Source: a virus. From it: 45,465 bases of DNA. This document shows, in pieces, positions 2,741 to 45,465 of the stretch. The notes beneath the pieces were generated by a model, which was not told the DNA's origin, ran no database searches, and worked only from the letters and a program-made list of their open reading frames with translations. The stretch lies in IMG/VR virus record IMGVR_UViG_3300027674_000002, one strand, 5' to 3'. Position 1 is the first letter of the stretch, and each line of letters opens with the position of its first letter. Made by a program: the position numbers and the translations under genes.

Positions 2741-2988
2741 GCGATCCTCAGGGCCCTGCGCTTATTCGGCATGGCCTTTTTTTCTTCCTTGAGATAGCGC
2801 TTTCGCAGCGCGCGATATCGTTTCACCTTGCCGCTCCAGTCATCTCTGTTTTCGCGGTCCAAGCGCGTATCGTCGGCTCTTCTCGGCGGGAGAGTGGAAT
2901 CGATCATGGATTCCAGACTTTCGATTGCCTCGGCGAACGCGTCGATCAGGTCGGCGCGCTCGCCGTTCGTCAAAGTGTTTTGGTTCAT
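2737..2988 (-). CDS. hypothetical charged protein (83 aa)
   Basis: MNQNTLTNGERADLIDAFAEAIESLESMID... ATGA overlap with the integrase stop. Confidence 0.5.
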   Translation of the reverse strand: MNQNTLTNGERADLIDAFAEAIESLESMIDSTLPPRRADDTRLDRENRDDWSGKVKRYRALRKRYLKEEKKAMPNKRRALRIA

Positions 2989-4088
2989 GCGATCCTCGCG
3001 ATCTTCCCGCGCCGCGGTGCAGGCGCGGCCGGCGCTACCAGTTTCTCGATCGCGGCCTTGCCGTGTTCGGGCGAAAGATGCGCGTAGCGCATCGTGGTGA
3101 CGATCGAAGCGTGTCCGAGGAATTGCTGCACGGTGCGCAGGTCCACCCCGGCCATCACCAATCGGGATGCGAAGGTGTGCCGCAGGTCGTGCCAGCGGAA
3201 ATGGATCACTCCGGCCTTCGCAAGGATTTTCTGAAAGCGATCGTTGCGCCGGTCGAACGAGGATTCCGAGCGGCGGCAGACGTAGCGCGAGCCGCGGGAT
3301 TGCTCGTAAAGTTTTTCGAGCGCCAGTCGCGCCGCCGAATTGATGGGGATGAAGCGCCGCCCGGTCTTCCCTTCCCTCGGCACGGTCAGGATGCCGCGCT
3401 CGAGGTCGATCAAATCCCAGGTCAGGTGGAACTGCTCGCCGAGGCGCAGGCCGGTGTGGAGCGCCAGGTCCATCTCCGCTTCTAGCTCGGGATTCCAACC
3501 ACGCATTTTTTCGCGGATGGCGGATTCTTCATCGGCCGCGAGGTAGCGGATGATCCCGGGATGCGGGGCGAAGGCCTGGGTGGCGGCAACGGGATTTCTC
3601 GCGACGAAGCCGTTCTTGATGCCGTGGTCGAAGATGCTGTTCATCGTCCAGCGGTAGGCGTTCATGGCCGAATCGCCGAGCTCGCCGGTGACGGTCTTGC
3701 GCCCGGTGTTTTTCCTGGGGCGCGGCGAAGGCGTGCGCAGCGCGCGCAGCGCTTCATTGATCTTCGCCGTGCCGATCGCCGCCGCCGGCAGCGCGCCGAT
3801 GAGCGGCAGGACGCGGCGGAGCCGGGAACGTATGCCGCCGAGCGTTCGCTTCCGCAGATGCCCTTCCTTGTCGGCCAGCATTTTTTCCGCGAGCTCCGCG
3901 AAGGTCACGCGCCGCTCGCGCTGCGGCGCAACGTAGCGGCCTTCGCGCACTTCGCGCTTTTTGTTGACGTAGGCTTCGATGGCGACCGCGCGCCGCCCGA
4001 CGTGTTCCCGGTGGCGGCGGCCGTCGGCGTCGGCGTAGCAGATGAACCAGTCGTTCGAGCCTTTGACCTTTTCGAACACACCCCTCAT
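2985..4088 (-). CDS. int: tyrosine recombinase / phage integrase (367 aa)
   Basis: Catalytic signature ..TGLRLGE.., WHDLRHTFASRLV, LGHASIVTTMRYAHL (R..HxxR..Y). N-terminal SAM-like arm domain. Leader GGGAAAGGAAACGAT before the ATG. Confidence 0.95.
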   Translation of the reverse strand: MRGVFEKVKGSNDWFICYADADGRRHREHVGRRAVAIEAYVNKKREVREGRYVAPQRERRVTFAELAEKMLADKEGHLRKRTLGGIRSRLRRVLPLIGALPAAAIGTAKINEALRALRTPSPRPRKNTGRKTVTGELGDSAMNAYRWTMNSIFDHGIKNGFVARNPVAATQAFAPHPGIIRYLAADEESAIREKMRGWNPELEAEMDLALHTGLRLGEQFHLTWDLIDLERGILTVPREGKTGRRFIPINSAARLALEKLYEQSRGSRYVCRRSESSFDRRNDRFQKILAKAGVIHFRWHDLRHTFASRLVMAGVDLRTVQQFLGHASIVTTMRYAHLSPEHGKAAIEKLVAPAAPAPRRGKIARIA

Positions 4089-4121
4089 ATCGTTTCCTTT
4101 CCCGTTCAGAAATTGGTTGCT

Positions 4122-4361
4122 TTAACGGACGTGGAGGACGTGGCGGCTTGCGATCTCCGCTGAGAGAACCCCGGCCTGGCACTTCGCGCCGCGCTCGAGC
4201 GCCGTGCGAATCTGCTCGCGGAGTTTCGCGCGCGCGCGCTTGAGCTGGCGGATCTGTTCGGCGAGGTCGCGTTCCTGCAGCAGGAGCCGCTGCGTGATTC
4301 TCTGGGCCTGTTTTGGAGAATGCTTAACGACGCTGAGCTGACTGCTCGACTCGGGAGCCAT
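4122..4361 (-). CDS. coiled-coil protein (79 aa)
   Basis: ORF track. Heptad-like QRLLLQERDLAEQIRQLKRARAKLREQIRTALE. GGAGGA Shine-Dalgarno upstream. Confidence 0.5.
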   Translation of the reverse strand: MAPESSSQLSVVKHSPKQAQRITQRLLLQERDLAEQIRQLKRARAKLREQIRTALERGAKCQAGVLSAEIASRHVLHVR

Positions 4362-4408
4362 GGGTCCTCCAAGGGACGGAAAATATCGAGAGCTGGGACA
4401 GGGCGCGA

Positions 4409-4437
4409 AGCATACGCCTCAGAGTGACGTATCGCAA
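4409..4437 (-). promoter_or_regulatory. candidate sigma70-type promoter (TTGCGA-17-TATGCT) upstream of 4122..4361 and int
   Basis: Minus-strand TTGCGA (4437..4432), 17-nt spacer, TATGCT (4414..4409), in a 126-nt AT-richer intergenic gap. Confidence 0.3.
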
Positions 4438-4487
4438 TCGTAAAATTTTCCGCTGGTTGGAATCCCGAGCAGACTGTGGAAAAGCTG

Positions 4488-4820
4488 TTATCTGCTTTTT
4501 CTCTGGCGGGCGCGCTCGCGATAAACCTGGCGCTCTTCCTTGAGGGTCTTCTCGATGATCTGGTCCGACAGGGCCATGGAGCGAAGCCGACCCAGGCGGG
4601 CGCCGACCTCGTCGTATTGATCAAGGCCCCAGAGGAAAACCTTGCGCACGAAATCGGCCACGGGAAGCTCTTCCTGCTCGGCGGCCGCTTCGATGCGGTC
4701 CCCCAGGGCATCCTCGACCTTGAAGGATACCTGCCTCGACTTCTTCGCCTTCGTAATGGCCATTTCGTTAAAGGGTTGGGTTTCTGCATTGGATGTTCCC
4801 ACGCCTGCAAATGGTTTCAT
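4488..4820 (-). CDS. ribbon-helix-helix (CopG/Arc-like) DNA-binding protein (110 aa), candidate lysogeny regulator
   Basis: KSRQVSFKVEDALGDRIEAAAEQEELPVADFVRKVFLWGL has a beta-strand/helix/helix pattern. GGAG 6 nt before ATG 4820. Divergent from a second RHH gene. Confidence 0.7.
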   Translation of the reverse strand: MKPFAGVGTSNAETQPFNEMAITKAKKSRQVSFKVEDALGDRIEAAAEQEELPVADFVRKVFLWGLDQYDEVGARLGRLRSMALSDQIIEKTLKEERQVYRERARQRKSR

Positions 4821-4889
4821 AAAACTCCATTGACTGCAAGTGGATTCGTATGGTATGTAGGACTCCCAAGGAGTTAAAGGAGCCTGAGA
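4821..4889. promoter_or_regulatory. divergent promoter/operator region between two RHH genes
   Basis: Plus-strand TTGACT (4830..4835), 18 nt, TATGTA (4854..4859). Three ACTCC/GGAGT half-sites at 4824, 4862 and 4870. Confidence 0.4.
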
Positions 4890-5069
4890 ATGCCCGAAGC
4901 AAAAAAGAAAGCCGCCCGCGAAACAAAATCCCACCAGGTATCGATCCGGCTGAGCGCCGAGGCTTACCGGAAGCTCAGGGAGCTGGCCGAGAAGGAAGAT
5001 CGCAAGCCCGCGTATATCCTCCGCCGCGCTGTGCTCGGCGGCCTGGGGCTCGATTCGAAAGCGGCCTAG
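4890..5069 (+). CDS. ribbon-helix-helix protein (59 aa), Cro-like position
   Basis: Hand-translated: MPEAKKKAARETKSHQVSIRLSAEAYRKLRELAEKEDRKPAYILRRAVLGGLGLDSKAA. AAAGGAG Shine-Dalgarno at 4876..4882. Confidence 0.7.
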   Translation: MPEAKKKAARETKSHQVSIRLSAEAYRKLRELAEKEDRKPAYILRRAVLGGLGLDSKAA

Positions 5070-5070
5070 T

Positions 5071-5322
5071 ATGGACTCCCCGAAAATTCTCTACGTCCGC
5101 GTGGAGCGAAGGGCCCTCTTCCCGCCGCAGTTCCAGGTCTCGGACAAGCTTGAGGATTTCAAGCAGTCCGGGCCGGTGGCGACCTACCGCCTGGAACGCG
5201 TCAACCATCTGAGCGTCGAGCGAAATTTATCGAAGGCAGCGATCGGCGAGCCGGGTGCAGCGAGCCCCGCGCCTTCGAACTCACCGGCGGCGGCGAAGCG
5301 GCCGACGAAAAAGGGGAGATGA
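5071..5322 (+). CDS. hypothetical protein (83 aa)
   Basis: ORF track. Starts 1 nt after the previous stop. Confidence 0.5.
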   Translation: MDSPKILYVRVERRALFPPQFQVSDKLEDFKQSGPVATYRLERVNHLSVERNLSKAAIGEPGAASPAPSNSPAAAKRPTKKGR

Positions 5323-5323
5323 G

Positions 5324-5536
5324 ATGGACCGCCTGCTCTATTCCCGCGCGGAAGCCGCCGCACGTCTTTCGCTCTCCATCCGGGCCGTCGACAACCTGAT
5401 CTCGCGCAACCTGCTGGCCTCGCGCAGGATCGGCGCCAAGCGCCTGATCCCCCACGCCGCGCTGGTGGCCTTCGCGCAAAAAAATCACCCGTCGCCCAAC
5501 CTCCCGAAGAAGAAGACCGCGCTCGAGGCCTCGTGA
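5324..5536 (+). CDS. excisionase-family / MerR-like HTH DNA-binding protein (70 aa)
   Basis: MDRLLYSRAEAAARLSLSIRAVDNLISRNLLASRRIGAKRLIPHAALVAF matches the HTH_17/Xis-type pattern. GGGGAG Shine-Dalgarno. Confidence 0.7.
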   Translation: MDRLLYSRAEAAARLSLSIRAVDNLISRNLLASRRIGAKRLIPHAALVAFAQKNHPSPNLPKKKTALEAS

Positions 5537-6144
5537 TGAACGCACAGCAATTGCATCGATTCTTGAAATCCCTCGGCGCATGCGCCGAAGCGGTCGAATG
5601 GTCGAAGGATAAATCCCTGGCCGAAGCATGGTCGAGCTGCGAGCGCGCGGACTGGATGCTCTGGCTGCTCGGGAAGCGGATCGGGGAAAAAGGCTGGCCC
5701 GATCGCAAGCAAATCGTCCTGCTGGCATGTTTGTGCGCGGAGACCGCGCTGAAATTCGTTCCCGCCGGCGAGGACCGTCCGCGCAAAGCAATTGAAACCG
5801 CGCGCGCATGGTGCGAAGGCAAAGCCACGCTCGCGGAAGTGCGCTCCGCCGCCGCCTACGCCGCCGCCGACGCCGCCGCCTACGCCGCCGCCGACGCCGC
5901 CGCCTACGCCGCCGCCGCCTACGCCGCCGCCTACGCCGCCGCCGCCTACGCCGCCGCCGACGCCGCCGCCTACGCCGCCGCCTACGCCGCCGCCGACGCC
6001 GCCGCCTACGCCGCCGCCTACGCCGCCGCCTACGCCGCCGCCGCCGCTCGGCGAGGCGCTCTTAAGGACATGGCCGAAATCATTCGCCAGGCGATTCCGT
6101 CGCTTTCACTGGCGACCGCGAAGCGGTCGACCGAGGCCTCGTGA
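5536..6144 (+). CDS. protein with a helical N-domain and a long Ala-Tyr/Ala-Asp repeat tract (202 aa)
   Basis: ORF track (ATG at 5536 overlaps the previous TGA). About 65 residues of AAAY/AAAD/AAY units. Confidence 0.65.
   Translation: MNAQQLHRFLKSLGACAEAVEWSKDKSLAEAWSSCERADWMLWLLGKRIGEKGWPDRKQIVLLACLCAETALKFVPAGEDRPRKAIETARAWCEGKATLAEVRSAAAYAAADAAAYAAADAAAYAAAAYAAAYAAAAYAAADAAAYAAAYAAADAAAYAAAYAAAYAAAAARRGALKDMAEIIRQAIPSLSLATAKRSTEAS
5848..6048 (+). repeat. about 200-bp coding microsatellite-like tract (GCCGCCGCCTAC / GCCGCCGCCGAC / GCCGCCTAC units)
   Basis: Direct reading of 5848..6048. All three plus-strand frames stay open across it. Confidence 0.9.
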
Positions 6145-6359
6145 TGGATGGCATGAGCGAGGTTCAACGGTTCGTCTTCCATGGCGATCAGAAAATTCCC
6201 GTCGTCGTGCATCCCTCCCTGGAGCCGTGGCAGTGGAAGTACATCAACGGAAACCTTTTCGTCGGCAAGGGAATGGACATCGATCAGTTGCTTTTCAAGC
6301 TGAACTGCACGCCGTATGACTCCTGGTTTCTGCGGTCGATCAAGGTGGAGGCGCCGTGA
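6144..6359 (+). CDS. hypothetical protein (71 aa)
   Basis: ORF track. GTGATG junction with the previous stop. Confidence 0.5.
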   Translation: MDGMSEVQRFVFHGDQKIPVVVHPSLEPWQWKYINGNLFVGKGMDIDQLLFKLNCTPYDSWFLRSIKVEAP

Positions 6360-6826
6360 TGAAATTCCTGCACGAAGACGAAGCGACGTGGATCACCTTC
6401 ACGAAAATCAGGGCCAAGAAGAACGCCGACGACAAGCGCATCGCGAAGATGGAGTTTGCCCTGCAGCTCGACGGCGTCAACACGAAGAAGATGCCGGCAT
6501 TCGTCGCGGACGCCTGGGCGTCGATGCGCAACGTGAACAGCGCGATCGTGCTCGAAAAAATCGACCGCGCCATCGAAAGCCAGAACCTCTTTTTCCACGC
6601 CCATCCGGACGACAAAGCGGTGCGGCATGAGATGGAAGAAGTCGACCTGTTCGACCTGCGGCTGGAGAAAGACAGGGACAAAAAAATCTGGCTCTTCTTC
6701 CACGTCGTGCAGTACGTCGATGTCGAGCTGTGGAAATGGATCGGCGCGCATTTCGGGCGAGAGATCGCCGCGCGCTTCGAGGAATGCCAGGGCGAGCTGA
6801 AGCTGGCGAAAGCCGCGGGTGACTGA
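6359..6826 (+). CDS. hypothetical protein (155 aa), balanced globular composition
   Basis: ORF track. GTGATG junction. No motif recognised. Confidence 0.65.
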   Translation: MKFLHEDEATWITFTKIRAKKNADDKRIAKMEFALQLDGVNTKKMPAFVADAWASMRNVNSAIVLEKIDRAIESQNLFFHAHPDDKAVRHEMEEVDLFDLRLEKDRDKKIWLFFHVVQYVDVELWKWIGAHFGREIAARFEECQGELKLAKAAGD

Positions 6827-7026
6827 TGCCGCCACCGCTCAAAACCGTGTCCGTCGTCGCGCATGCTTTCGATTGTCTGCCCGGACACATCCAGATCAGC
6901 GGCCGCGGCGAAGGCAAGCAGCTGCGGAGCGCAATGTTCCGTGCCGTCTCCCAGGTCCTCCGCGATCCCCGGCTTCGCTGGAAACATGTGAACGACTTCA
7001 AGATGCAAATCGTCGTGATGCGGTGA
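6826..7026 (+). CDS. hypothetical protein (66 aa)
   Basis: ORF track. TGATG junction. Confidence 0.45.
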   Translation: MPPPLKTVSVVAHAFDCLPGHIQISGRGEGKQLRSAMFRAVSQVLRDPRLRWKHVNDFKMQIVVMR

Positions 7027-7046
7027 TCGTCTTCCTTAAGGTCGAG

Positions 7047-7181
7047 ATGGAGGCGCGGTGCACGGGATGCGGCGCGATCGGGCCCGTGGAGCTCTCGCGC
7101 CTGCTGTGCGCCTGGTGCTTCGCCCAATGGATCGAATACTGCAAGTGGCTCCGGAGAAGGCAATGCGTCCCCGCGATCTAG
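7047..7181 (+). CDS. possible small Cys-rich protein (44 aa)
   Basis: MEARCTGCGAIGPVELSRLLCAWCFAQWIEYCKWL... Internal ATG of track ORF 6819..7181. Overlaps the next gene by 19 nt. Confidence 0.3.
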   Translation: MEARCTGCGAIGPVELSRLLCAWCFAQWIEYCKWLRRRQCVPAI

Positions 7182-7702
7182 CTCCCATCGAAGTTCTCGC
7201 CGAGCGGAAACCCCACGGCACGCGCCTGCGCTATCTCGGCGGATGCAAATGCGTTCCCTGCCGCGCTGCCGCTTCGCGTTATGAAACCGGCCGCGCCAAA
7301 CTGCGCAAGATGGGATTGTGGAATGGAATCGTCGATGCGACGCGCGCGCGCCGCAGATTGTTTTGGTTATCGAGGCGCGGCATCGGCCGCTATTCCATAG
7401 CGCGAGCCACCGGGATCTCCGCGACGGTGATCTGCAAAATCCGGAGCGGCGAACGCCGTCAATGTCGAGCGATGACGGAGAAAGCGATTTTGGAGCTCGG
7501 CGGCAATTCACCGCCGCAAAGCATGCTCGTTCCCGCCGGCAGGACCTGGGCGCGGATCCGCTGGCTGCTCGCGCAGGGATTCACGAAGGGGGGAATCGCG
7601 CAGCGCCTGGGGTCGAGGACGCCGGCGTTGCAGCTCCGCAAGGACTTCGTGATTCTCCGGACCGCGAAAAAAGTCGAAGCGCTCTGGCGGTCATTCCAAT
7701 GA
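7163..7702 (+). CDS. phage DNA-binding protein with an HGT..Y..GC.C..C motif and HTH (179 aa)
   Basis: HGTRLRYLGGCKCVPCRAA, then IGRYSIARATGISATVICKIRSG. GGAGAAGG Shine-Dalgarno before ATG 7163. Confidence 0.65.
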   Translation: MRPRDLAPIEVLAERKPHGTRLRYLGGCKCVPCRAAASRYETGRAKLRKMGLWNGIVDATRARRRLFWLSRRGIGRYSIARATGISATVICKIRSGERRQCRAMTEKAILELGGNSPPQSMLVPAGRTWARIRWLLAQGFTKGGIAQRLGSRTPALQLRKDFVILRTAKKVEALWRSFQ

Positions 7703-7750
7703 TTTTCCACATTTCCTCCGCTCTTGTTGTTGTTGCTCTTAAGTTTTTCC

Positions 7751-7803
7751 GGAAAGAGAGGAGAGAAGAGGGGGGAATCTTAAGGGGGGAGAGGAGGGGA
7801 GAG
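7751..7803 (+). repeat. polypurine tract (27 + 22 nt, interrupted by TCTT), imperfect mirror repeat
   Basis: ggaaagagaggagagaagaggggggaa tctt aaggggggagaggaggggagag, read directly. Confidence 0.85.
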
Positions 7804-7860
7804 TCAAGTGGAATCGAGCAGCGGCCTGTGCATCCGTTCGGTTTTCGCGCGATTTCCCGC

Positions 7861-7901
7861 TCGCCCGGTGCTTTGCGGTGCGTCGCGGTGCAGCCGGGTG
7901 C
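7861..7901 (+). repeat. four direct repeats with exact 10-bp phasing (..SCGGTGC)
   Basis: GGTGC begins at 7867, 7877, 7887 and 7897. Confidence 0.7.
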
Positions 7902-7947
7902 GCTCGAAACAAAGAATCCACAGGCGGGCCTGTGAATCGCTTTGCAA

Positions 7948-7990
7948 AACCGCGCGAAGGCTCCCGGCAAGGGGCGCTTGGCGCGAATGG
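7948..7990 (+). repeat. structured hairpin repeat, copy E (the only plus-strand copy)
   Basis: AACCGCGCGAAGGCTCCCGGCAAGGGGCGCTTGGCGCGAATGG. Same architecture as the four minus-strand copies. Confidence 0.8.
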
Positions 7991-7996
7991 TGGGAA

Positions 7997-8263
7997 ATGA
8001 ACGGAAGCGGAGTCAGCAACAGAGAACGGATCAGCAGCGCGGTGCGCGGCGAACTAAAGCCCTGCGCGCGGTGCGGGAACCCGCGATGGTTCCATCTGCT
8101 ATCGCCATTCGCGCGGCGCGCGGAAGACTGGCGGGATGACGGCCACTCCTTCGATGCCGGCGGCCGCGCGCCGCGGGCGCAGCTGAAACTGGTTTTTATT
8201 CGGAAAGATGGAAGGGAGAAAGACAATGTCGATTCGAATCATGCGAAGGCCGCCCACCGATGA
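7997..8263 (+). CDS. hypothetical protein (88 aa)
   Basis: Internal ATG of track ORF 7808..8263. High GC3 in the first 60 codons. Sits 11 nt after hairpin copy E, as for copies A and C. Confidence 0.4.
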   Translation: MNGSGVSNRERISSAVRGELKPCARCGNPRWFHLLSPFARRAEDWRDDGHSFDAGGRAPRAQLKLVFIRKDGREKDNVDSNHAKAAHR

Positions 8264-8462
8264 TGAGCTGACAGCCTGGAGAGGATTGCATCAAGGCGGC
8301 CGCGGAGCGACGCGAACGCTTTTCGGGAAACACGCGCTGAAGCGCGTGCACGTGCACCTGGGGATAGAGGCGTTTCTCGCGAAGCTGCGCAGGGACAAGG
8401 AATGGGAGTCCGCCTGCGAGCTGGCGCGGGCGACGATCAAGAGGCTTCCGCCGGCGGCGTGA
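8226..8462 (+). CDS. hypothetical protein (78 aa)
   Basis: MSIRIMRRPPTDDELTAW... GGGAGAAAG Shine-Dalgarno. Overlaps the previous call by 38 nt in another frame. Confidence 0.45.
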   Translation: MSIRIMRRPPTDDELTAWRGLHQGGRGATRTLFGKHALKRVHVHLGIEAFLAKLRRDKEWESACELARATIKRLPPAA

Positions 8463-8688
8463 CGCGGGTCTTCTTTTCTCGCTCGCGCCTGTCGACTCCT
8501 TCCCTGATCCGCGCTAGCCGGCGCCTGGCATGATCCAATTCCTCCGACAGGCGCTTCAGGTATGTTTTCGGAACGATGTGCGCGGAGTGTTCGAGCGCTT
8601 CGATGTAGTGCGGCGTGCAGACGCGCAATCCGAGGAGCTCGTGCGGCGCCGCGGCTTCGCAGCCCGGAACGTAACAACTAATTTTCAC
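8437..8688 (-). CDS. hypothetical Cys/His-containing protein (83 aa), last gene of the long minus-strand operon
   Basis: ORF track. YVPGCEAAAPHELLGLRVCTPHY. Convergent with the plus-strand operon. Confidence 0.5.
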   Translation of the reverse strand: MKISCYVPGCEAAAPHELLGLRVCTPHYIEALEHSAHIVPKTYLKRLSEELDHARRRLARIREGVDRREREKKTRVTPPAEAS

Positions 8689-9391
8689 GTTCGGTCAGGG
8701 AGAGCCGGCGCTTCGCCGCTTCGAGCGCGTGGAAGCGCGGCGCGGGAAGTTTGTCGTACAACTTGCTGGCGCGCAGGACCATCAGCGCAAGAAAATCGCG
8801 GTCCTCGGGTTTCGATGGCAGATTATGCTCGAGGCGCACGACAATCTCCTCGAACCTGCCGAGGTCCAGACCGACGGCGCCGGCGAACGCGCGCACGCCC
8901 ATGTCCGTGTCCTCGTAAGCCGGGAAAGTGACCGGGCTGACGTCCATCAGGTCCACGTCGATGAGGTCGCGAATCGTTTCGCCGTCCTGCATGTGCCAGT
9001 TGTCGGTGACGGTGCGGAAGCGGAAGCTGCCCTGGCTGATGTCGCCGCGGTCGATGGAGGTCATCAGGTCGCGCGCCGCCTGGGTATCCGGCGCGTCGAT
9101 CTCCATGCGCAGGCCGGTGGAATCTTCCTTCAGACGGAGCGTGCCGGCTTTGTTGCGGCCGAGCACGATGTCGGGGTTGTGATTGAGGAGCGCGCGGACG
9201 TCCGCGCCCTCGGCGAGCGTGCGCTTGAACGCGCCCGGCATGATCTGCTCTCGCATGCCCCACATGCGCCGCGACAATTTGTTGAACTTCGCGGGGTAGC
9301 CCACGATCATCGTGGGTTTGCCGTCGCGCTTCTCCACGCGAAACTCCGCCGTGAAATCCTTCGCGTTCAAAAACCTCTGTTCGACTTCCAT
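8678..9391 (-). CDS. HK97-family prohead serine protease (237 aa)
   Basis: GYPAKFNKLS..EQIMPGAFKRTL..LLNHNPDIVLGR..LRLKEDSTGL..DTQAARDL..IDRGDISQGSFRF matches the S78/U35 pattern. AGGAG Shine-Dalgarno. Confidence 0.9.
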   Translation of the reverse strand: MEVEQRFLNAKDFTAEFRVEKRDGKPTMIVGYPAKFNKLSRRMWGMREQIMPGAFKRTLAEGADVRALLNHNPDIVLGRNKAGTLRLKEDSTGLRMEIDAPDTQAARDLMTSIDRGDISQGSFRFRTVTDNWHMQDGETIRDLIDVDLMDVSPVTFPAYEDTDMGVRAFAGAVGLDLGRFEEIVVRLEHNLPSKPEDRDFLALMVLRASKLYDKLPAPRFHALEAAKRRLSLTEREN

Positions 9392-9524
9392 GTCAGCTCC
9401 TGTCTGCTAGGTTTTGCTTTCAAAGTCGCCGTGATGTTCCAGTGGACGATGCAGAGCCGGAACAGCACGCCTTCGAATTCGATCTCCCGGTGCATCTTCC
9501 GGGGGCACAAATCGCAGCCGCGCT

Positions 9525-9956
9525 TTACTTCTCGGGCCACACGATTCCGGTGATCGCCAGGATCCGGTCCGCTTCGCCCGATGCCGGCGGCCCGCAGTTC
9601 AACATCTGTTCCTGCACGTTGAAGGGCTGAAAATCGCCATTCGCTGCTTTTTTTAGCATGGGCGTGACTTCGAGAAACGGAAGGCAATGGATCAGCTCGC
9701 CGGTGGTCAGGACGCGGGATCCGCTCTTCGATTGCACGCCGATCGCGACATGGATCGTCGGCAGGAAAATGGCGATGCGCTCTCCCGTAGGCAAGGTGAG
9801 CAGGTCCTGAAAGAGGAACTGCTGCGGCCGACCATTCGCGCCAAGCTGCCCTTGCCGGGACACGTTGGCGCGTTCATCCGGCGGCGCCGGAAGCGCGGCC
9901 AGCACCAAAGCTCCCAGGAACAGCATCGCGAATAAAATGCTCCAGCGCTTAAGCAT
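9525..9956 (-). CDS. predicted secreted protein (143 aa) with hairpin repeat copy B embedded in frame
   Basis: Signal-like MLKRWSILFAMLFLGALVLAALPAPP. Internal ATG of track ORF 9525..10250. Confidence 0.45.
   Translation of the reverse strand: MLKRWSILFAMLFLGALVLAALPAPPDERANVSRQGQLGANGRPQQFLFQDLLTLPTGERIAIFLPTIHVAIGVQSKSGSRVLTTGELIHCLPFLEVTPMLKKAANGDFQPFNVQEQMLNCGPPASGEADRILAITGIVWPEK
9833..9874 (-). repeat. structured hairpin repeat, copy B
   Basis: Sense strand AACGCGCCAACGTGTCCCGGCAAGGGCAGCTTGGCGCGAATG. Confidence 0.85.
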
Positions 9957-9969
9957 GGTCCACCGCTCC

Positions 9970-10011
9970 CATTCGCGCGAAGCTGCCCTTGCCGGGACAC
10001 GTTCGCGCGTT
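9970..10011 (-). repeat. structured hairpin repeat, copy A
   Basis: Sense strand AACGCGCGAACGTGTCCCGGCAAGGGCAGCTTCGCGCGAATG. Starts at the portal stop codon. Confidence 0.85.
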
Positions 10012-11950
10012 AAACATTGTCGACCGCGACAATTTGGCATTCGCAGCGCGCGCCTCTCGGGGGATGGTTGGCCGCCGCGGCGGGTTCGATGAACCGCGTG
10101 GCGATCGACATGCACTCGCTGCTGCAGCCGGTTTCGGGAACGATCCAGGCCAGCGTCTTCGCGCCGGCGGCTTTGTAGAGATGCAGCGCGAAAGCGTTCG
10201 AGGCGCGCATGGCTTCCTCGTGCGCGCGGTCGGTGACGCCGTTGGCCCACACGGCCATTTTGCCGATGTGGTTGACCAGCGCCTCTTTCACGTAGCGGTG
10301 CGCGAAATTGTCCGCGTAGCTCGCGATGAATTTGTCGCGGTCGGCGATCGCGGCGGTGCGGCCTTCCATGCGGAGGAGGGTCGAGACGGATTCCTCGATG
10401 CAGGTGAGCACCGGCAGGACGGCGTCGCGCACGTAGGCGTCGTGGTCGCGGAAGAAATTGTCGGCGTCGGCGCCCTCGCGCGCGAGCGCGGCAATCTCTT
10501 TCCTGGCCAAGCGTTCCCCGACGCTGCCCAGCAGTGGGATGAAGGCGCGGGTAACCTGCCGGCGGCGCTCGGCGAGCTCCTGGGCATGCCTCTTTTTGGC
10601 CTTGGGGTCTCCCGTGGCGGGCGGAGGATTCTTTGGCGTCCCAGATGGCGAAGGACTCCCATCCGGGCCCATATTGGCCGCCGGCGCGGGCGCCGGGGGG
10701 TTTATGGCCCTGTCGATGGGTTGCTGGGTGACTGGGATGAAATAGACCTTGCCCTGGCCGTCCGGCAGGGGGTTCTGGTTGCGCCGCTTGCGGATCTCGT
10801 CGGTGTTCGTCCAGCCGTCCATCCAGGCGATATTCTCGGCTTCGTTCTGGCTCTTCAGGTCGCCCAGTTTTTGGGCCGTGAAATCGTGCTCGGCGAAATA
10901 AGTTTTCTGATCTTCCGGGTTCAGCAGTTTGCGATGGACTTCCGCCTCGATGCCGTCGCCCCAGGGCTCCACGGCGTCGCGGACGAATTCGATCGATTGG
11001 TGCTCGATGTTGGAGAATGTCCCGTGCGTGAGCTCCGCCAGCTTGTGCAGCGGGACGTTGAACATCCGCGCGATCTCGGATAGCTGGAAGACGCGCGTCA
11101 GCAGGTATTGCGCATCCTCGTTCGACATCCCGATCTTTTCGATCTTCATGCCCTCTTCGAGCACGGCGACGCGGTGCGCCTGGTCGCCTCCGCGGTGCGA
11201 CTCTTCCCAGGATTCCTTGAGGCGCTTCGCCGATTCGGCTTTCATTTTGGCGGGATGGGTGAGCACGATCCCGGGCGTCGCATCGTTGCCGAAGAAGCGC
11301 GCGCCGTAATCCGTCGCCGCCATCGAAAGCCCCATGCTCTCGCGGTGCAGCGCGACGGGAGAAAGTCCGCGCAGCCCATCGTAGCTATAGCCCATCACAT
11401 GCAGGACCTCGTAGGGCTGCAGGATGACTTCAGGGCCGGCGCTCGAGCGCGCCACGTAAATCAGTTTCCCGGTTCCTTTTCCATCCGGGCCGATCATGCG
11501 GCGGGGAAAGGTGCGGTCCGGGCGGAGCGGCCAGAGCGCCACGACCTGGCCGCCATTGTCGCGCTCGATCTCCGCGTATCCGTTGCCCCACAGCAGCAAA
11601 TGCCCCATGAAGGTTTCCCAAAAAGTTTTCTTGGTCATCTCCGGGTTCGGCGGCCAGCGCAGCAGCGGATAGAGCGGATGGTCGGTCGCTTCGCGGGTTT
11701 CGCCGTTCGTCTGCGTTTGAAACAGACGAAATGGCGAGGTGGAGATCGCGCGGGAGATCAGATTGACGGCGGCCCACACGGCGGAGAGCTGCATCGCCGT
11801 GCGCTCCGTCATGGTCTGGCCGGAAGCGGTCGGATGCCCGCCGGCATATTCCACCAGCCAGCGATCGGGCTCGGAGAGATTCGAGCGCAGCTCGAGGCGG
11901 AACGGGTTCAGCTCCGCGCGAAGTCCGAATCTTCCGGCCGTCAGAATCAT
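10010..11950 (-). CDS. HK97-family portal protein with a MuF/SPP1 gp7-like C-terminal extension (646 aa)
   Basis: The N-terminal ~410 aa are portal-like (MQLSAVWAAVNLISRAIST.., GYSYDGLRGLSPV). The C-terminal ~230 aa end in ETGCSSECMS...NHPPRGARCECQIV, resembling the MuF C..C...PP.H..CRC signature. Confidence 0.88.
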   Translation of the reverse strand: MILTAGRFGLRAELNPFRLELRSNLSEPDRWLVEYAGGHPTASGQTMTERTAMQLSAVWAAVNLISRAISTSPFRLFQTQTNGETREATDHPLYPLLRWPPNPEMTKKTFWETFMGHLLLWGNGYAEIERDNGGQVVALWPLRPDRTFPRRMIGPDGKGTGKLIYVARSSAGPEVILQPYEVLHVMGYSYDGLRGLSPVALHRESMGLSMAATDYGARFFGNDATPGIVLTHPAKMKAESAKRLKESWEESHRGGDQAHRVAVLEEGMKIEKIGMSNEDAQYLLTRVFQLSEIARMFNVPLHKLAELTHGTFSNIEHQSIEFVRDAVEPWGDGIEAEVHRKLLNPEDQKTYFAEHDFTAQKLGDLKSQNEAENIAWMDGWTNTDEIRKRRNQNPLPDGQGKVYFIPVTQQPIDRAINPPAPAPAANMGPDGSPSPSGTPKNPPPATGDPKAKKRHAQELAERRRQVTRAFIPLLGSVGERLARKEIAALAREGADADNFFRDHDAYVRDAVLPVLTCIEESVSTLLRMEGRTAAIADRDKFIASYADNFAHRYVKEALVNHIGKMAVWANGVTDRAHEEAMRASNAFALHLYKAAGAKTLAWIVPETGCSSECMSIATRFIEPAAAANHPPRGARCECQIVAVDNV

Positions 11951-15324: not shown

Positions 15325-15447
15325 CTTTTTTCCTCCAGGTTGGAATCGACGCGAGTGGAATTCCGTTCTTCGTTCGTGGCGGCGGGTAGATCCATTCGCC
15401 CTCCACCGCCGGAAGAGAGAGGGCGAGCGAAAGCTGCTTACTGCAAA

Positions 15448-18120: not shown

Positions 18121-18700
18121 TCGATTCCCTTCCCTTTCTTGGTTCACAGATCAAACCGTAGTAACTGACGTTTTCGAGAGAAACCTTCCAGCCCTTCATG
18201 ATCCCGCCGCGGCCGAGGAGCAGATAGCGCGCCGCGAAGAGCGCGAGATCCCGTTTCATCGGAACGTCCCATGATTCCGGGATTCCCATCGCCTCGCGCG
18301 CGAATGTGGAGATATTCGCTCCGCCCGGGCTCGAGACGGCGCCGTGCGTGAGGAAGACGGCCGTCTTCTGCTTGAGCCGCTCAAGGATGTGCCGCCAGGG
18401 CTTCCAGGGCTCGCCGTAGGTGTCGATATCGATGACCGTGAAGCGCCCGAGGTCAAAAGCGGACAGAAAGCGTTCGTCCGTCGCATCGCCGAGAATCGTC
18501 CCGGGAAGCCGCGGCGCGATGTCCACCGGGATGTAGTCCGCGAGTTTGACGTGTTCGCGCATGGTGCGCCAGACCTGGCCCTCGCCGGCGCAGAGGTCCA
18601 GCACCCGGAGCTCGCCGAGCGCGGCATGCTCGAGCGTTTTGCGGCGGATCTGGATTTTCAGGTCCAGCCGCCGGTTGTCGGTTTTGATTTGCTGAGTCAT
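18098..18700 (-). CDS. SAM-dependent methyltransferase (200 aa), substrate unknown
   Basis: Motif I VLDLCAGEGQ. Motif IV-like VIDIDTYGEPW. Internal ATG of track ORF 18098..19066. Confidence 0.7.
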   Translation of the reverse strand: MTQQIKTDNRRLDLKIQIRRKTLEHAALGELRVLDLCAGEGQVWRTMREHVKLADYIPVDIAPRLPGTILGDATDERFLSAFDLGRFTVIDIDTYGEPWKPWRHILERLKQKTAVFLTHGAVSSPGGANISTFAREAMGIPESWDVPMKRDLALFAARYLLLGRGGIMKGWKVSLENVSYYGLICEPRKGRESNGRNDKN

Positions 18701-19796: not shown

Positions 19797-20115
19797 CGAC
19801 GTTTCCTTTCCCTTGCGTGGCCGAGCTCGCCCACACCAGCGCGATGATCCAGCCGAGAATCGTCCAGCCTAGAAATAAGTCGAGCACCCAGATCGCGGTG
19901 CGTTGATGGTGGTGCCGGCTCTGGCCGATCAGTCCAGGCAGGAAATACGCGCCCGCCGCTAAAGCCAGGACCAGAAACCCTCGCAGCATCGCGCCGGCGT
20001 GGTCCGGGTCGATGTTTATGTCGGTGAATCCGGCGATGAAGATCGAAGCGGCGCATACCACGACCACCCCGATCACCACCCCCGCGATGATTTTTCCCGC
20101 TTGTTGGTTCGTCAT
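19780..20115 (-). CDS. membrane protein with a superinfection-immunity (Imm-type) domain (111 aa)
   Basis: YFLPGLIGQSRHHHQRTAIWVLDLFLGWTILGWIIALVWA matches the Imm_superinfect motif. Confidence 0.65.
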   Translation of the reverse strand: MTNQQAGKIIAGVVIGVVVVCAASIFIAGFTDINIDPDHAGAMLRGFLVLALAAGAYFLPGLIGQSRHHHQRTAIWVLDLFLGWTILGWIIALVWASSATQGKGNVDAGSN

Positions 20116-20146
20116 TGTCGTTTCCTTTCCCTTTCCAGAGATCTCA

Positions 20147-20551: not shown

Positions 20552-20574
20552 TGGCGTTTCCTTTCCCTTACACA

Positions 20575-22376: not shown

Positions 22377-22418
22377 CGAGGACGATTCCTTTCCCTTGCG
22401 TTTGCGGATAGGAAGAAA

Positions 22419-25862: not shown

Positions 25863-26173
25863 ACGATGGCCGCCTGGGGACCGCTCATGGCCACTTGCCA
25901 GGCGGCCGCGTCGGCGACCTTCTGGCGATATCCGTCAAGCTGCGCCTGGAGCGCGGCGGCGGTCGTCAGCTCGATCGGCCCCGTGCCATTCGCGCCGATC
26001 GCATGGCGCTCCGTATAGATATGCGGTGGCGTTCCGGGAATCGTCGCGGTGATCTCGTACACGATGGGATTCGAATCGACCTGCACCGTGTCGACCGCGA
26101 TGTTCACGCCCGGCAGGTTCACGGACGTGAGCGTCTTTGTCGCAAATGTTTTCGGCGTAACAGAAAGGCCCAT
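25859..26173 (-). CDS. hypothetical protein (104 aa) downstream of the host-specificity gene
   Basis: ORF track. The GGAG Shine-Dalgarno is formed by the 3' tail of hairpin copy C. Confidence 0.5.
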   Translation of the reverse strand: MGLSVTPKTFATKTLTSVNLPGVNIAVDTVQVDSNPIVYEITATIPGTPPHIYTERHAIGANGTGPIELTTAAALQAQLDGYRQKVADAAAWQVAMSGPQAAIV

Positions 26174-26181
26174 GAATTCTC

Positions 26182-26224
26182 CATTCGCGCCAAGCTGCCC
26201 TTACCGGGACACGTTGGCGCGGTT
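26182..26224 (-). repeat. structured hairpin repeat, copy C
   Basis: Sense strand AACCGCGCCAACGTGTCCCGGTAAGGGCAGCTTGGCGCGAATG. Confidence 0.85.
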
Positions 26225-34728: not shown

Positions 34729-34770
34729 CATTCGCGCCAAGCTGCCCTTACCGGGGCACGTTGGCGCGTT
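34729..34770 (-). repeat. structured hairpin repeat, copy D
   Basis: Sense strand AACGCGCCAACGTGCCCCGGTAAGGGCAGCTTGGCGCGAATG. Confidence 0.85.
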
Positions 34771-34773
34771 TTA

Positions 34774-35406
34774 CTACCAGAGCACCGGCTTCCCGGTGAT
34801 TCGGATCGTGCCGGTGACGGTGATGCGGTCGTCGACCGGGTAAGCCGGAGTCAGCGCGGTCACGTAGCCGCTGAACATCCAGATCCCGGTGCCGGCCGCG
34901 GGAAGCGCGATGCACCAGTTCGAAAGCACGCCGCCTTCGAAATCCGTGCGCGCATTCTGCTGCGACAGCGTCGCTTCCTTCGGGATGTAGTTCCCCTCGA
35001 AGGTGATATCGCCGCCCTCGCGGAGTCCCGCGATGAATTCCTTGTACGTGCTCGGCGACATCATGTTCGAAACTTCCTTCATGTCCGCCTTCATCCCCGG
35101 GCCGCCGAACTTGATGCTCTCGAGCAGCGGAACCATCAGCGCGATATTGATGGCCGTGCCATGGGTGACGTTGAAAATGGCGGTGAACGTCGAGCCGGTG
35201 ATGGCGCTGACCTCCACGAGTTCGGTAAGTGCGGCGTTGCCGGTATCGATCGCGAGGATCGTGCCGATGGCGATATTCGTCATCGCCGCCGGCGTGACGA
35301 CCTGCGGCGACGCGTTCAGCGTGATGGCCGCCGCGATGGTGGTGAGCGTCGCGGCGCGGCGCCCCAATACTGTTCCGTATCCGACCTGTGCTTGTGAGAC
35401 AGCCAT
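34774..35406 (-). CDS. major tail (tube) protein paralog with an insertion of about 75 aa (210 aa)
   Basis: N- and C-terminal parts align with 35484..35888 (MAVSQAQVGYGT.., GGPGMKADMKEVSNMMSPSTYKEFIAGLREGGDITFE.., RITGKPVLW). Confidence 0.8.
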   Translation of the reverse strand: MAVSQAQVGYGTVLGRRAATLTTIAAAITLNASPQVVTPAAMTNIAIGTILAIDTGNAALTELVEVSAITGSTFTAIFNVTHGTAINIALMVPLLESIKFGGPGMKADMKEVSNMMSPSTYKEFIAGLREGGDITFEGNYIPKEATLSQQNARTDFEGGVLSNWCIALPAAGTGIWMFSGYVTALTPAYPVDDRITVTGTIRITGKPVLW

Positions 35407-35483: not shown

Positions 35484-35888
35484 CTAGCTCAGAACCGGTT
35501 TTCCGGTGATGCGCAGCGTTCCGCTGCACACGATGCGGTCGTCCACCGGGATCGCCGGCGTCAGCGCCGACACCATCGCGGTGAACGTCCAGGTGCCGAG
35601 CGCGCCGGGCAGCACGATCGTCCAGCTCGACTGCACACCGCCTTCGAAGTCCTGGCGCAGCGTGATCTGCGTGGCGTCCTTCGGGATGTAGTTCATCTCG
35701 AAGGTGACGTCGCCGCCTTCGCGAAGCCCCGCGACGAATTCCTTGTAGGTATTCGGCGAGAGCATGTTCGAAACTTCCTTCATGTCCGCCTTCATGCCCG
35801 GCCCGCCGACCTTCAGGACTTCGAGGACCGTGACGCCGGCGCGCTGCAAGAGCGTTCCGTATCCGACTTGTGCGAGTGAGACAGCCAT
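35484..35888 (-). CDS. major tail (tube) protein (134 aa)
   Basis: Position after the DUF3168 gene. phi13/TP901-like pattern GGPGMKADMKEVSNMLSPNTYKEFVAGLREGGDVTFEMNYIP.. AAAGGAG Shine-Dalgarno. Confidence 0.85.
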   Translation of the reverse strand: MAVSLAQVGYGTLLQRAGVTVLEVLKVGGPGMKADMKEVSNMLSPNTYKEFVAGLREGGDVTFEMNYIPKDATQITLRQDFEGGVQSSWTIVLPGALGTWTFTAMVSALTPAIPVDDRIVCSGTLRITGKPVLS

Positions 35889-37267: not shown

Positions 37268-37629
37268 CAGCCGGCCACCAGCCGCATGGACATTTCTTTG
37301 TAGTAATCGCCACGCGGCTCGCTGCCCGGCGCCGTGAAGGCCACCTGCAGCGTGTACATCCCTGGATTCGGCGCGAAGGTTTGTTCGACCAGGGCGCGAT
37401 AGATTCCGTTCGAAGCCGCGATGTATGCGAAAGAGATCCCGTCCAGTCCGGTGACGTGGGCTCCGGTGGAATCCACTAGCGTCGCGGTCCCCGTGAGATT
37501 GTTCAGATAGACCACCGGCACGGCAGTGCCGTCGCCGAGCGTGATCCCGGTAGTGCCGTCGACCATCGGGCCCCATTCGATGTACTCGTCGTTTTTCAAA
37601 TGGAAAGTGAGGCTGACCGGCATGGTCAT
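37267..37629 (-). CDS. hypothetical beta-rich protein (120 aa)
   Basis: MTMPVSLTFHLKNDEYIEWGPMVDG... ATGA overlap upstream. Confidence 0.55.
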   Translation of the reverse strand: MTMPVSLTFHLKNDEYIEWGPMVDGTTGITLGDGTAVPVVYLNNLTGTATLVDSTGAHVTGLDGISFAYIAASNGIYRALVEQTFAPNPGMYTLQVAFTAPGSEPRGDYYKEMSMRLVAG

Positions 37630-38984
37630 GAAGGCCTCACAATCGCGCCCTGGGAATGGATTGCCGGGCGCATGGCCGCGAACTGTGCATCGATCGCGGG
37701 CCGCACCGCCGCGCTGAGCGATTCCATCGAGGCGCGAACCGCCGCCGCTTGTGCATCGATCGCGGGCCGCACCGCCGCGCTGAGCGATTCCATCGAGGCG
37801 CGAACCGCCGCCGCCAGGGCGCCAATCGTCGGAGGTCCGCCGGCGACGGCCGGGATCTGCGGCGGAGCCGTGAGGATGTCGGCGGCCGCAAACCGTGGGG
37901 TTTGTCTGACCGCCGGCATATCTCGCAGCCAGGCAAGGTTGGGGGTCACAGCCTGGGCGAGAACTTTTTCCGGCGCCGTGCTGGCCGCGGGTTGCAGATG
38001 CGGAGAGGAAAGCGAAACCGCCGCCGCGTTCGGCATCCAATGATTCAGCGTGATGGCCGCGGGCGGAAGAGTTTTCGCGGGCGCCGTGAAAATGTCGCCG
38101 GCGGAGAAGGTGAAGCGCTTCGCGGGCGGCGCAACTTCCCCGAGCCAGGAGGGCAGCAAGACAACGGCCGGAACAGCGATTCCGAATTTTGGCGGCGCGG
38201 TGAACATGTCGCCCTGCGCGAAAACGTGGGCGACGGCTTTCGCGCCGTCCGTTCCAAACCAATTCGAAATCGTGATCGCCGCGGGCGGAAGAGTCTTCGC
38301 GGGCGCCGTGAAAATATCGCCGGCGGAGAATGTGAAGCGTTTCGCGGGCGAAGCTACTTCCCCGAGCCAGCTCGTGAGCGTAAATGGCGAAACGAATGGC
38401 GCGAACGTCGGAGGCCCGGTCCAGATGTCGCCGGCCAGGAAAACAAATCTCTTCGCGGGCCCGGCGACTTCCCCGAGCCAGTTCGTCAGGAAGGAATAGG
38501 GGAGGACTTTTTCCGGCGCGACAAATGAAGGCCCTTGCGCATGCGCAGGCGCAACGGCCGGCGCGGCGATCGTCGGCGTCCAATGGTTCAGCGTGATGGT
38601 CGCCGGCGGAAAAAGTTTCGGCGGCGCGGAGAATCCGTCAGGCAGCGAGTAGCGGAAAACTTTTCCGCTGACCGTGACTTCTCCGCGCCAGCCGGCGATG
38701 GTGGTCAGCGAAGCGGCGGCGACGGTCGCAGCCGGAGCGACGTAGCTGCTTTGCGCGTATTCCTGCGGCTGCGCAATTACGCCGGGCGTCGGAGTCCACA
38801 TCGCAATCGTGACGGCTGCAACGATCGCGGGAATCACTTTCGGCGGCGCGGTGAACGTGTCGCCTTGCGCGAAGCGCGGAGGCAGTGACCGGCCCGCCGG
38901 CGGCGCGACGTGGCGATCGCTGATGGGCACCGGAGCCGTCTGCGGCTTAAGGGGCGCGACGAAGGATTGATAAAAGCGCGGCAT
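37626..38984 (-). CDS. internally repetitive Pro/Ala-rich protein (452 aa), seven repeats of 35-45 aa
   Basis: Repeat core (K/P)RF.F..GD.FTAPPK...P....W(L)GEV. Two near-identical 38-aa units. C-terminal exact 22-aa duplication. Confidence 0.7.
   Translation of the reverse strand: MPRFYQSFVAPLKPQTAPVPISDRHVAPPAGRSLPPRFAQGDTFTAPPKVIPAIVAAVTIAMWTPTPGVIAQPQEYAQSSYVAPAATVAAASLTTIAGWRGEVTVSGKVFRYSLPDGFSAPPKLFPPATITLNHWTPTIAAPAVAPAHAQGPSFVAPEKVLPYSFLTNWLGEVAGPAKRFVFLAGDIWTGPPTFAPFVSPFTLTSWLGEVASPAKRFTFSAGDIFTAPAKTLPPAAITISNWFGTDGAKAVAHVFAQGDMFTAPPKFGIAVPAVVLLPSWLGEVAPPAKRFTFSAGDIFTAPAKTLPPAAITLNHWMPNAAAVSLSSPHLQPAASTAPEKVLAQAVTPNLAWLRDMPAVRQTPRFAAADILTAPPQIPAVAGGPPTIGALAAAVRASMESLSAAVRPAIDAQAAAVRASMESLSAAVRPAIDAQFAAMRPAIHSQGAIVRPS
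37684..37815. repeat. exact 66-bp tandem duplication (2 copies, 65/66 identical)
   Basis: 37684..37749 versus 37750..37815, compared base by base. Confidence 0.95.
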
Positions 38985-45186: not shown

Positions 45187-45465
45187 GTGGCAGGTGTTTG
45201 CTGCATTTTTGTGGGTGCCGGTGGAATGAAGTGGCAGTTTGAGTGGCAGTTGCGGTTCGCTGCCATGCGCTGCGGTGCGCTCCCTTGCAGTCTGCGTTCG
45301 TTGAAGAGAAAAGGTTTAGGTGCCCGGTGCGCTGCCCTGCGCTGCCCTGCGCTGGTAGTGTTGCATTTTGATAGACTGAATGCGGGGAACCCTAGGCCCC
45401 GTGTGTTGTTTTCGTTACGCGACGCGGCTTCCCGGCCGTGGCAGTTTGTGTGGCAGTTGGCTTTG
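45187..45465. repeat. iteron-rich non-coding region (continues into 1..103)
   Basis: GTGGCAG at 45187, 45231, 45243, 45439 and 45451, all in the same orientation. TGCGCTGCCC x2 plus related units at 45266..45356. Confidence 0.7.
45367..45465. repeat. 99-bp terminal direct repeat, copy 2
   Basis: Identical to 1..99. Confidence 0.9.

Follow-up and report, generated by a model that had tools for sequence, protein, structure and literature searches.

REP sequences (for 'repetitive extragenic palindromic') are short (20-40 bp), GC-rich imperfect palindromes with a conserved unpaired end tag; they lie mostly just 3' of open reading frames (ORFs) in operons and occasionally inside genes, they form RNA hairpins when transcribed, and they are not accompanied by target-site duplications (PMC3733652, PMC2817692, PMC3337134). 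Their tag is an unpaired GTAG or CGTC at one end (PMC3733652), and they occur in high copy number in the bacterial chromosome, often in arrays known as bacterial interspersed mosaic elements (BIMEs) or REPINs (PMC2817692). The miniature inverted-repeat transposable elements known as MITEs are non-autonomous, hairpin-folding and polymorphic for presence or absence, are tolerated in operons and can affect mRNA, and the review that describes them also covers Rickettsia palindromic elements (RPEs), palindromic repeats that insert in frame into unrelated genes without inactivating them (PMC10969869). The ends of IS200/IS605 elements are single-stranded DNA hairpins handled by the HUH transposase TnpA (PMC6006769). 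REP, MITE and RPE palindromes are known chiefly from bacterial chromosomes, and the literature we searched describes no REP-like family that resides mainly in phage genomes and moves between dissimilar phages without a linked transposase. Here we examine a viral genome of 45,465 nt, the IMG/VR record IMGVR_UViG_3300027674_000002 (hereafter the window), in which an initial annotation had noticed five copies of a ~42-nt hairpin and read them as a candidate intercistronic RNA motif. Sequence comparisons indicate that these hairpins are probably copies of a REP/MITE-like, non-autonomous miniature palindromic mobile DNA element interspersed in soil-phage genomes. We favour a mobile repeat over a fixed regulatory RNA because copies are gained and lost at non-orthologous sites, because some are in frame within genes or antisense to them, and because they sit in unrelated flanks and on dissimilar replicons.

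A covariance model built from 27 copies recovered all five hairpins of the window, with positions and strands as first reported, at 61-76 bits and E-values of 1e-16 to 1e-20. Copies A (9970..10011, outer stem CGCGCGAA/TTCGCGCG, 72.5 bits), B (9833..9874, the consensus form and the best-scoring copy at 76.3 bits), C (26182..26224, loop CGGTAA, 71.8 bits) and D (34729..34770, with the inner T.G converted to C-G, 72.5 bits) are of type 1 and lie on the minus strand. Copy E (7948..7990, plus strand, 61.1 bits) represents a type-2 variant, in which the 5' arm is shorter by one base, the inner stem is GCTCC/GGGGC and one G/G mismatch occurs. The fold drawn in the initial annotation is adopted by every copy: 8 bp of outer stem are followed by a 2x2 C.C/G.G internal loop and by 5 bp of inner stem, which include a T.G wobble and are capped by a CGGYAA loop. 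Folding energies range from -22.6 to -25.9 kcal/mol; that of copy E, whose fold differs slightly, is -23.1 kcal/mol, with a z of only -1.2. Taken alone, the 11-mer core CCCGGYAAGGG is not significant in the window (5 found, 1.9 expected), and weak model matches at 8103-8127, 15390-15430 and 25984-26053 (E 0.06-0.7) were judged to be due to chance. The hairpin corresponds to no described motif, as had been suspected: the whole window gave no Rfam match at the gathering threshold, the region of A and B gave only noise at a permissive E-value (E ~4-6), and a literature search with the core sequence returned unrelated papers only. Nor is it a classical terminator, since the tail reads GAAUGG with no U-tract and an intrinsic-terminator scan of 7600-10300 found none at the copies. 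A scan for sigma-70 promoters around A, B and E yielded nothing at the copies.

Copy A begins inside the portal TAA (10012-10010), and its tail, AATGGGAG, is the source of the GGGAG Shine-Dalgarno sequence for the ATG at 9956. Copy C separates the stop codon of a 1073-aa tail protein from the GGAG Shine-Dalgarno/ATG of the gene that follows, copy D follows the tandem TAG TAA stops of the tail-tube paralogue at 34774-35406, and copy E precedes a conserved small ORF. The placement first given, with A at the portal stop and C just after that of the tail protein, is essentially right, except that D lies 3 nt past the TAG rather than 5; E ends 6 nt 5' of the ATG (7997).

Exact and relaxed pattern scans of IMG/VR found one true relative, IMGVR_UViG_3300031753_000301, a phage also represented by metagenome contig Ga0307477_10000374 (hereafter the relative); the other eight single IMG/VR matches are chance hairpins. 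Pattern scans also yielded about ten further metagenome contigs with the element. A pattern tolerant of stem variation matched one contig among 185,579 species genomes, from a metagenome-assembled genome (MAG) of Terriglobales, and with this single match the element is not a high-copy host repeat. Loci of relatives were found by a TerL-based search, a portal-based one having given only a portal of 37% identity. Altogether, the covariance model identifies 41 distinct copies at E < 1e-5, or 42 sites when one weaker tandem copy is included. The unit is ~43 nt long and consists of AA, a 36-nt imperfect palindrome (13 bp) and an AAYGG tail, the CGGYAA loop and the tail being nearly invariant.

The stem covariation seen at first in the five copies holds, and it becomes stronger with the relatives. 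Across the 27 copies, 99.1% of stem cells are paired, with changes on both sides in 5 pairs. In the alignment of 41 distinct copies, which was fitted to the model and hence leans towards structure, 98.6% of stem cells are paired, and compensatory changes on both sides occur in 7 of the 13 pairs; not one of these measures was reached in 500 shuffles, and slid controls were 22-52% paired. Compensated stems include CGCGCAAA/TTTGCGCG, CGCACCAA/TTGGTGCG and CGCATGAAG/CTTCATGCG, and among the inner stems TCTCC/GGGGA and AGCCC/GGGCT. As mirrored changes are kept, we infer that selection acts on the hairpin itself, whether while it is mobilised as single-stranded DNA or later, as RNA, and not on duplex terminal repeats bound by a protein. 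Covariation in a repeated hairpin is not in itself proof of a regulatory RNA, since mobile palindromes keep their pairing too.

Variants of the element were also found. A 'long' variant of ~63 nt keeps the termini (AACGCGCCAACGTGTCCCG ... CAGCTTGGCGCGAATGG) and has a different apical hairpin or insert. At 4610-4712 of contig L014, a copy of the long variant is followed directly by a type-2 copy (4610/4667), which is the only tandem, BIME-like arrangement that we have seen; the type-2 copy has a heavily compensated outer stem (ACACGAAAAG/CTTTTCGTG) and a GGTA loop. Two other hairpins, at L001 12205 and L017 829-872, have unrelated stems and the same apical CC-GGCAA-GG motif (GGCCCGGCAAGGGCC and TCTCCGGCAAGGGGAG), without the GAATGG tail. 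They could be unrelated to the element or very diverged relatives of it.

The window and the relative are syntenic, with amino acid identities of 90% for TerL, 84% for the protease, 80% for the tail protein, 77% for the tape measure protein and 69% for the integrase. The relative harbours at least 16 copies, essentially none of them orthologous to a copy of the window. Junctions 30548/30552 and 33907/33950 are filled in the relative and empty in the window, where the genes abut. The reverse is found at junction C, which is empty in the relative and reads TGA followed directly by GGAGAAATCATG, the window having ~44 nt inserted ahead of the GGAG. Junction D of the relative is likewise without a copy, and its intergenic sequence differs. 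Copy A is missing from three relatives (L032, L039 and L040), in which the portal stop and the next start codon overlap instead (ATGnnTRR). In the window, it is flanked by an 18-19-nt duplication of this portal-stop/next-ATG junction, GCGGTCGACAATGTTTAA upstream at the end of the portal gene (10010..10027, minus strand) and GCGGTGGACCATGCTTAAG downstream with the start codon of a 143-aa ORF (9948..9966, minus strand), both of which align to the single junction of the relatives, GCGGTGGACAATGCGTAA. Copy E lies 5' of an 88-aa ORF (7997..8263, plus strand), while the orthologous ORF of the relative has the nearest copy at its 3' end; being on opposite sides of the same ORF, the two are not orthologous. 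This ORF has a CxxC motif (ELKPCARCGNPRWFH...DWRDDGH), is conserved in the relative (L019 3633 onward) and is missing from public gene calls. As for the other syntenic relatives, L031 has no copy in 17 kb, L040 none in 13.9 kb, and L039 has two, at other sites. Judged from these alignments, copies have been gained and lost at differing sites among syntenic phages.

The initial annotation had named the motif intercistronic. Most copies do lie between the stop codon of one gene and the Shine-Dalgarno/ATG of the next one; copy B, for which it gave no placement, is not intercistronic and is read through in frame within the 143-aa ORF. The corresponding gene (9525..9956, minus strand) is conserved, has no assigned function, lies between those of the portal and the prohead protease, and is called in the ENA/NCBI records. 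The frame of copy B, read from the ATG at 9956, has high third-position GC, and differences between the ORF and its orthologue are biased towards the third codon position (16/14/33). Copy B encodes (E)RANVSRQGQLGANG, ~14 residues between a signal-peptide-like N-terminus and the conserved body of the protein. The element is wholly missing from the homologues P0003-P0005, the relative's homologue P0002 has its left arm only (DERANVS, a 30-nt in-frame difference), and L031 is without the gene, its portal gene abutting that of the protease. The integrase of the relative harbours a 13-aa insert, VDAPTCPGGSLAG, which is missing from the window integrase and corresponds to a degenerate copy (L023 3351-3395), and two further copies are read through in its C-terminal tail. 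The element is thus tolerated within an integrase and within a gene of the structural module. The consensus contains no stop codon in any of the six frames; we do not take this as a special adaptation, since 14% of shuffles are stop-free too. Overall, the element has inserted mainly into the short gap that separates a stop codon from the following Shine-Dalgarno/ATG, and also in frame within genes.

What moves appears to be the hairpin and nothing else. The 40 sites compared have no extended shared flanks, their surroundings being mutually unrelated, and they display no regular target-site duplication, copy A with its atypical 18-19-nt duplication being the only exception; the unit of mobility is therefore the hairpin alone. 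Near-identical copies, some of them identical in the 42-nt core, are present on contigs L012, L014, L016, L021 and L024, none of which has a significant tblastx match to the window. The proteins encoded on the other element-bearing contigs mostly belong to no Pfam or PHROG family, and the phage nature of those contigs is therefore presumed. The Terriglobales MAG has a solo copy on a chromosomal contig, among genes for an M61 peptidase, MacB/FtsX, an S58 peptidase and GcvT, and this contig has nothing else in common with the phages. The solo copy is flanked by another, unrelated palindromic repeat (GGGGCTTGTACTTGCAAACCCC / GGGTTTGTACTTACAAACCC; L026 ~8230-8255 and ~8450-8480), and this intergenic region seems to collect hairpin repeats. 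As the MAG labels differ (Terriglobales for the chromosomal copy, Chthoniobacterales for a window-like contig), the host is uncertain. In the relative, many copies cluster around the integrase/lysogeny region.

Relative to the flanking genes, 35 of the 42 sites are in sense orientation, 6 are antisense and 1 is ambiguous, as called with our own codon-usage gene caller and with public gene calls. Three of the antisense sites belong to the tail/structural region of the relative, among orthologues of minus-strand genes of the window, and two of these three are also confirmed by direct alignment of the junctions. Most sense intergenic copies follow the order stop codon, hairpin and then next ATG, 5-13 nt past the tail, and in roughly half of these copies the tail's TGG merges into GGAG, GGGAG or GGTGGGA. 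At the two clean empty sites, (T)GGAG is the native sequence that adjoins the insertion on its 3' side, which hints, for two sites only, at insertion 5' of GG. The sense bias is best explained by survival, in that a sense tail, ...GAATGG(AG), preserves or supplies a Shine-Dalgarno sequence. Folding is nearly as favourable for one strand as for the other (RNA: -23.2 and -21.8 kcal/mol; DNA: -13.8 and -13.3 kcal/mol), and the consensus T.G position is unchanged in antisense copies. The wobble is thus a property of the element and not evidence of tuning at the RNA level, and we rejected it as proof that the RNA strand is the functional one.

Among the alternatives, the one that survives best, although we consider it improbable, is that of the initial annotation: a dedicated cis-acting RNA element of the polycistronic phage mRNA, whether an RNase III/E site, a barrier to 3'-exonucleases or a site for an RNA-binding protein, that tunes the neighbouring cistrons and has spread through its usefulness. 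Such an element would account for the strong covariation together with the conserved loop and tail, for the stability of the hairpin, for the prevalence of sense sites, for the typical order from stop codon to Shine-Dalgarno/ATG within 5-13 nt, and for the exact consensus of copy B despite diverged flanks. It does not account for antisense copies in operons (6 of the 42 sites) or for in-frame intragenic ones, and the positions of the copies are not conserved among syntenic relatives, some of which have no copy at all in the regions compared. Several element-bearing contigs share no detectable protein with the window, and one copy resides in an intergenic region of a bacterial chromosome. Furthermore, a 43-nt sequence so conserved cannot recur by convergence, so that a copying mechanism is needed regardless. 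The cold-shock-domain protein of the window, which had been put forward as a possible RNA-binding partner, has only a 'faint' Pfam match. The hairpins and their covariation have thus stood up to analysis while their reading as a dedicated intercistronic motif has not, and the RNA-motif interpretation is, overall, partly supported. The initial annotation had itself contemplated a host REP or MITE family, that is, passive DNA repeats; what we find is a repeat of this kind, but it is not of a described family and it is not abundant in any host genome, with 1 match in the 185,579 species genomes.

It is very unlikely, in our opinion, that the copies are recombination 'linkers', i.e., identical 43-bp repeats at gene boundaries that provide the phages of one host with homology for modular exchange and that spread by recombination rather than transposition. 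The same element is indeed found at gene boundaries of otherwise dissimilar contigs, copy A stands at the edge of a gene missing from L031, and the 18-19-nt duplication at A is as expected from unequal exchange between two nearby copies. Nevertheless, recombination alone cannot create a new site with unrelated flanks, the intragenic copies and the solo chromosomal copy are left unexplained, and no mosaic joint has been shown to coincide with a copy.

Sites for proteins that bind double-stranded DNA are harder still to credit, be they repressor sites that block elongation in the manner of 'stoperators' or core sites of the tyrosine-recombinase type. Multi-copy, orientation-biased intergenic sites are known in mycobacteriophages, and the element can be read, as for a recombinase core site, as two 15-bp arms around a 6-bp asymmetric spacer, CGGYAA, with a near-invariant asymmetric centre; the abundance of copies near the integrase/lysogeny region of the relative also fits. 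However, compensatory changes that keep the arms complementary are unexpected if a protein monomer reads each half-site, the arms are rendered non-identical by the conserved C.C/G.G and T.G mismatches, and the long variant replaces the centre entirely. Recombination sites in direct repeat across essential operons would delete these operons, and one copy occurs in a chromosomal locus without similarity to phages. Three other candidates were dropped: a boxB/nut-like GGCAA loop, as the hexaloop register is the one backed by covariation and a scatter of 5-16 copies through late operons is unlike nut sites; mimicry of CRISPR repeats, as there is no array and no genome match; and integron attC sites, as R'/R'' core sites and genome matches are lacking.

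If the hairpins are copies of a mobile DNA element, as we favour, an enzyme supplied in trans might handle the single-stranded DNA hairpin as in the REP/RAYT (REP-associated tyrosine transposase) or IS200/IS605 systems, which offer the closest mechanistic analogy. By that analogy, an HUH-like route of mobilisation is possible, although we hold it only tentatively. Template switching or recombination between copies would be alternative routes of copying. Once inserted and transcribed, in either orientation, a copy would fold, within the polycistronic mRNA, into a hairpin of about -22 kcal/mol, and REP-like effects on mRNA decay or translation are plausible as secondary consequences.

Several points weigh against a mobile element. 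The term 'mobile' is founded on comparative presence and absence, as the analysis identified neither a mobilising enzyme nor an excision product nor a target-site duplication. At copy A, the duplication of 18-19 nt is not expected of simple cut- or copy-and-paste transposition; unequal exchange or a non-standard insertion would fit it. The consensus is matched exactly by copy B and by the half-copy of the relative although their flanks are ~25% diverged, which would need purifying selection or gene conversion rather than the neutral decay of selfish DNA. The proportion of sense sites (35/42) and the near-invariant loop and tail would also fit recognition by a factor acting at the RNA level, and the orientation of the genes at several metagenomic loci comes from our own crude gene caller. 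The exactness of copy B and the half-copy, the near-invariance of the loop and tail and the sense bias suggest that the copies are not merely junk.

We also considered, as a rather unlikely extension of the mobile-element reading, that a phage-borne hairpin devoid of transposase spreads among unrelated phages of one host community by an undescribed route, either through a host or phage HUH-like enzyme acting on single-stranded DNA or through hairpin-primed template switching during replication. It would be kept as a portable intercistronic cassette, which combines a stable hairpin with a tail that forms a Shine-Dalgarno sequence, and as a 43-bp homology 'linker' for modular exchange. If so, no smaller self-propagating unit has so far been described in phage genomes, and this one can also be written in frame into proteins. 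Provided that it is mobile, the element represents a tractable case for how minimal hairpins are copied, for whether they affect the expression of phage operons, and for whether they seed the mosaic recombination of temperate phages.

The window itself is a complete phage-like genome with 62% GC. Its first 99 nt are repeated exactly at its end (1-99 = 45367-45465), which points to a circular or terminally redundant complete genome, or to an assembly overlap. The Pfam-annotated gene calls, on which the gene content given here is based, include TerS, TerL, portal, S78 protease, HK97-type capsid, tail genes and a tyrosine integrase. The window is identical or nearly so to contigs in ENA soil metagenomes and to the contig in an NCBI MAG labelled Chthoniobacterales. 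A cultured-phage collection held no close relative of it, with distant terminase matches only, and scans of the window for tRNA and tmRNA genes found none.

The integrase, helix-turn-helix (HTH) genes and a block of plus-strand genes occupy 2985-8462, between the gene of the prohead protease (8678-9391) and the major capsid gene (43161-44489), which is reached across the circular junction. As the capsid gene directly follows that of the protease in L031, a lysogeny/accessory module appears to have been inserted into the head-gene cluster of the window. Two neighbouring tail-tube paralogues (PF16461), at 34774-35406 and 35484-35888 on the minus strand, have DNA segments that are 72-85% identical, and copy D comes directly after the downstream one.

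The window contains other repeats as well. A 15-nt motif, AAGGGAAAGGAAWCG, occurs seven times, always on the minus strand (1881-1895, 4091-4105, 18122-18136, 19800-19814, 20119-20133, 20555-20569 and 22383-22397), against 0.14 expected by chance. It is found a few bases 5' of an ATG in the four copies for which the full sequence was read (20119, 20555, 1881 and 19800), and it looks like an extended ribosome-binding or 'start-associated' sequence; the relative has similar AGGGAAAGGAATCG..ATG strings (L019 ~3935 and L032 ~675). A tandem array with a 12/15-nt period (GCCGCCGCCTAC/GAC...) at 5796-6095 on the plus strand, within the ORF at 5656-6144 (plus strand), is predicted to encode an Ala-rich (AAAY/AAAD)n repeat protein. 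Lastly, a 452-aa ORF on the minus strand (37626-38984) has internal repeats at 37857-38873, spaced by multiples of ~111 nt (108-321 nt), which suggests a repeated domain in a protein of the head/tail region without assigned function.

How does the element compare, then, with the systems described? Mycobacterial interspersed repetitive units (MIRUs) and the Start-Associated Sequences (SAS) of Cluster K mycobacteriophages are short intercistronic repeats oriented with transcription that overlap stop, Shine-Dalgarno and start signals, as the hairpins do here. They are, unlike our element, not strong palindromic hairpins, MIRUs being tandem and chromosomal and SAS being 13-bp non-palindromic sequences. 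The RNase III hairpins of T7 are multiple and intercistronic, contain an internal loop and belong to a polycistronic phage transcript, in all of which the phage element resembles them; to our knowledge, however, T7 sites keep their positions, are sense throughout and do not occur within genes, and the element differs in these respects.

The likeness to REP and REPIN sequences lies in the 36-nt palindrome, the stem-loop, the conserved unpaired end, the placement (chiefly right after ORFs in operons and now and then within a gene) and the lack of a regular target-site duplication. In contrast with REPs, the unpaired end is GAAYGG (CCRTTC on the other strand), our alignments display no terminal GTAG or CGTC, and a phage genome holds 5-16 copies where a chromosome has hundreds of REPs. 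Unlike REPINs, the copies are mostly single units and not inverted pairs, the tandem pair of L014 aside. As for the enzymes, the Pfam-annotated gene calls of the window include no RAYT (Y1/HUH) gene, no IS200/IS605 tnpA and no member of a transposase family, the sole recombinase being the phage tyrosine integrase. The single-stranded ends of IS200/IS605 elements nevertheless provide a close structural parallel, in that they are imperfect hairpins with conserved mismatches and a conserved unpaired flank and lack target-site duplications (PMC6006769). The phage element has a single hairpin in place of distinct left and right ends, no fixed target tetranucleotide has emerged from its flanks, and it follows no consistent strand rule between syntenic phages.

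The difference between filled and empty sites in related genomes is reminiscent of MITEs such as Correia, ERIC and Chunjie. Unlike in MITEs, the whole element is an inverted repeat, with no internal region distinct from terminal repeats; no flanking direct repeat of constant length accompanies it, its length is two to ten times less, and its compensatory covariation argues for recognition of the hairpin rather than MITE-like recognition of duplex terminal repeats. With RPEs it shares the presence of in-frame copies, namely copy B and those of the insert and tail of the relative's integrase. RPEs are ~100-150 bp long and reside in bacterial chromosomes, whereas the phage element is 43 nt long, adds 13-14 residues and is mostly intergenic. 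By analogy with all of these, the element appears to work like a REP or a MITE, and like a Rickettsia palindromic element when intragenic, yet it lacks the features by which membership of each of these families is defined.

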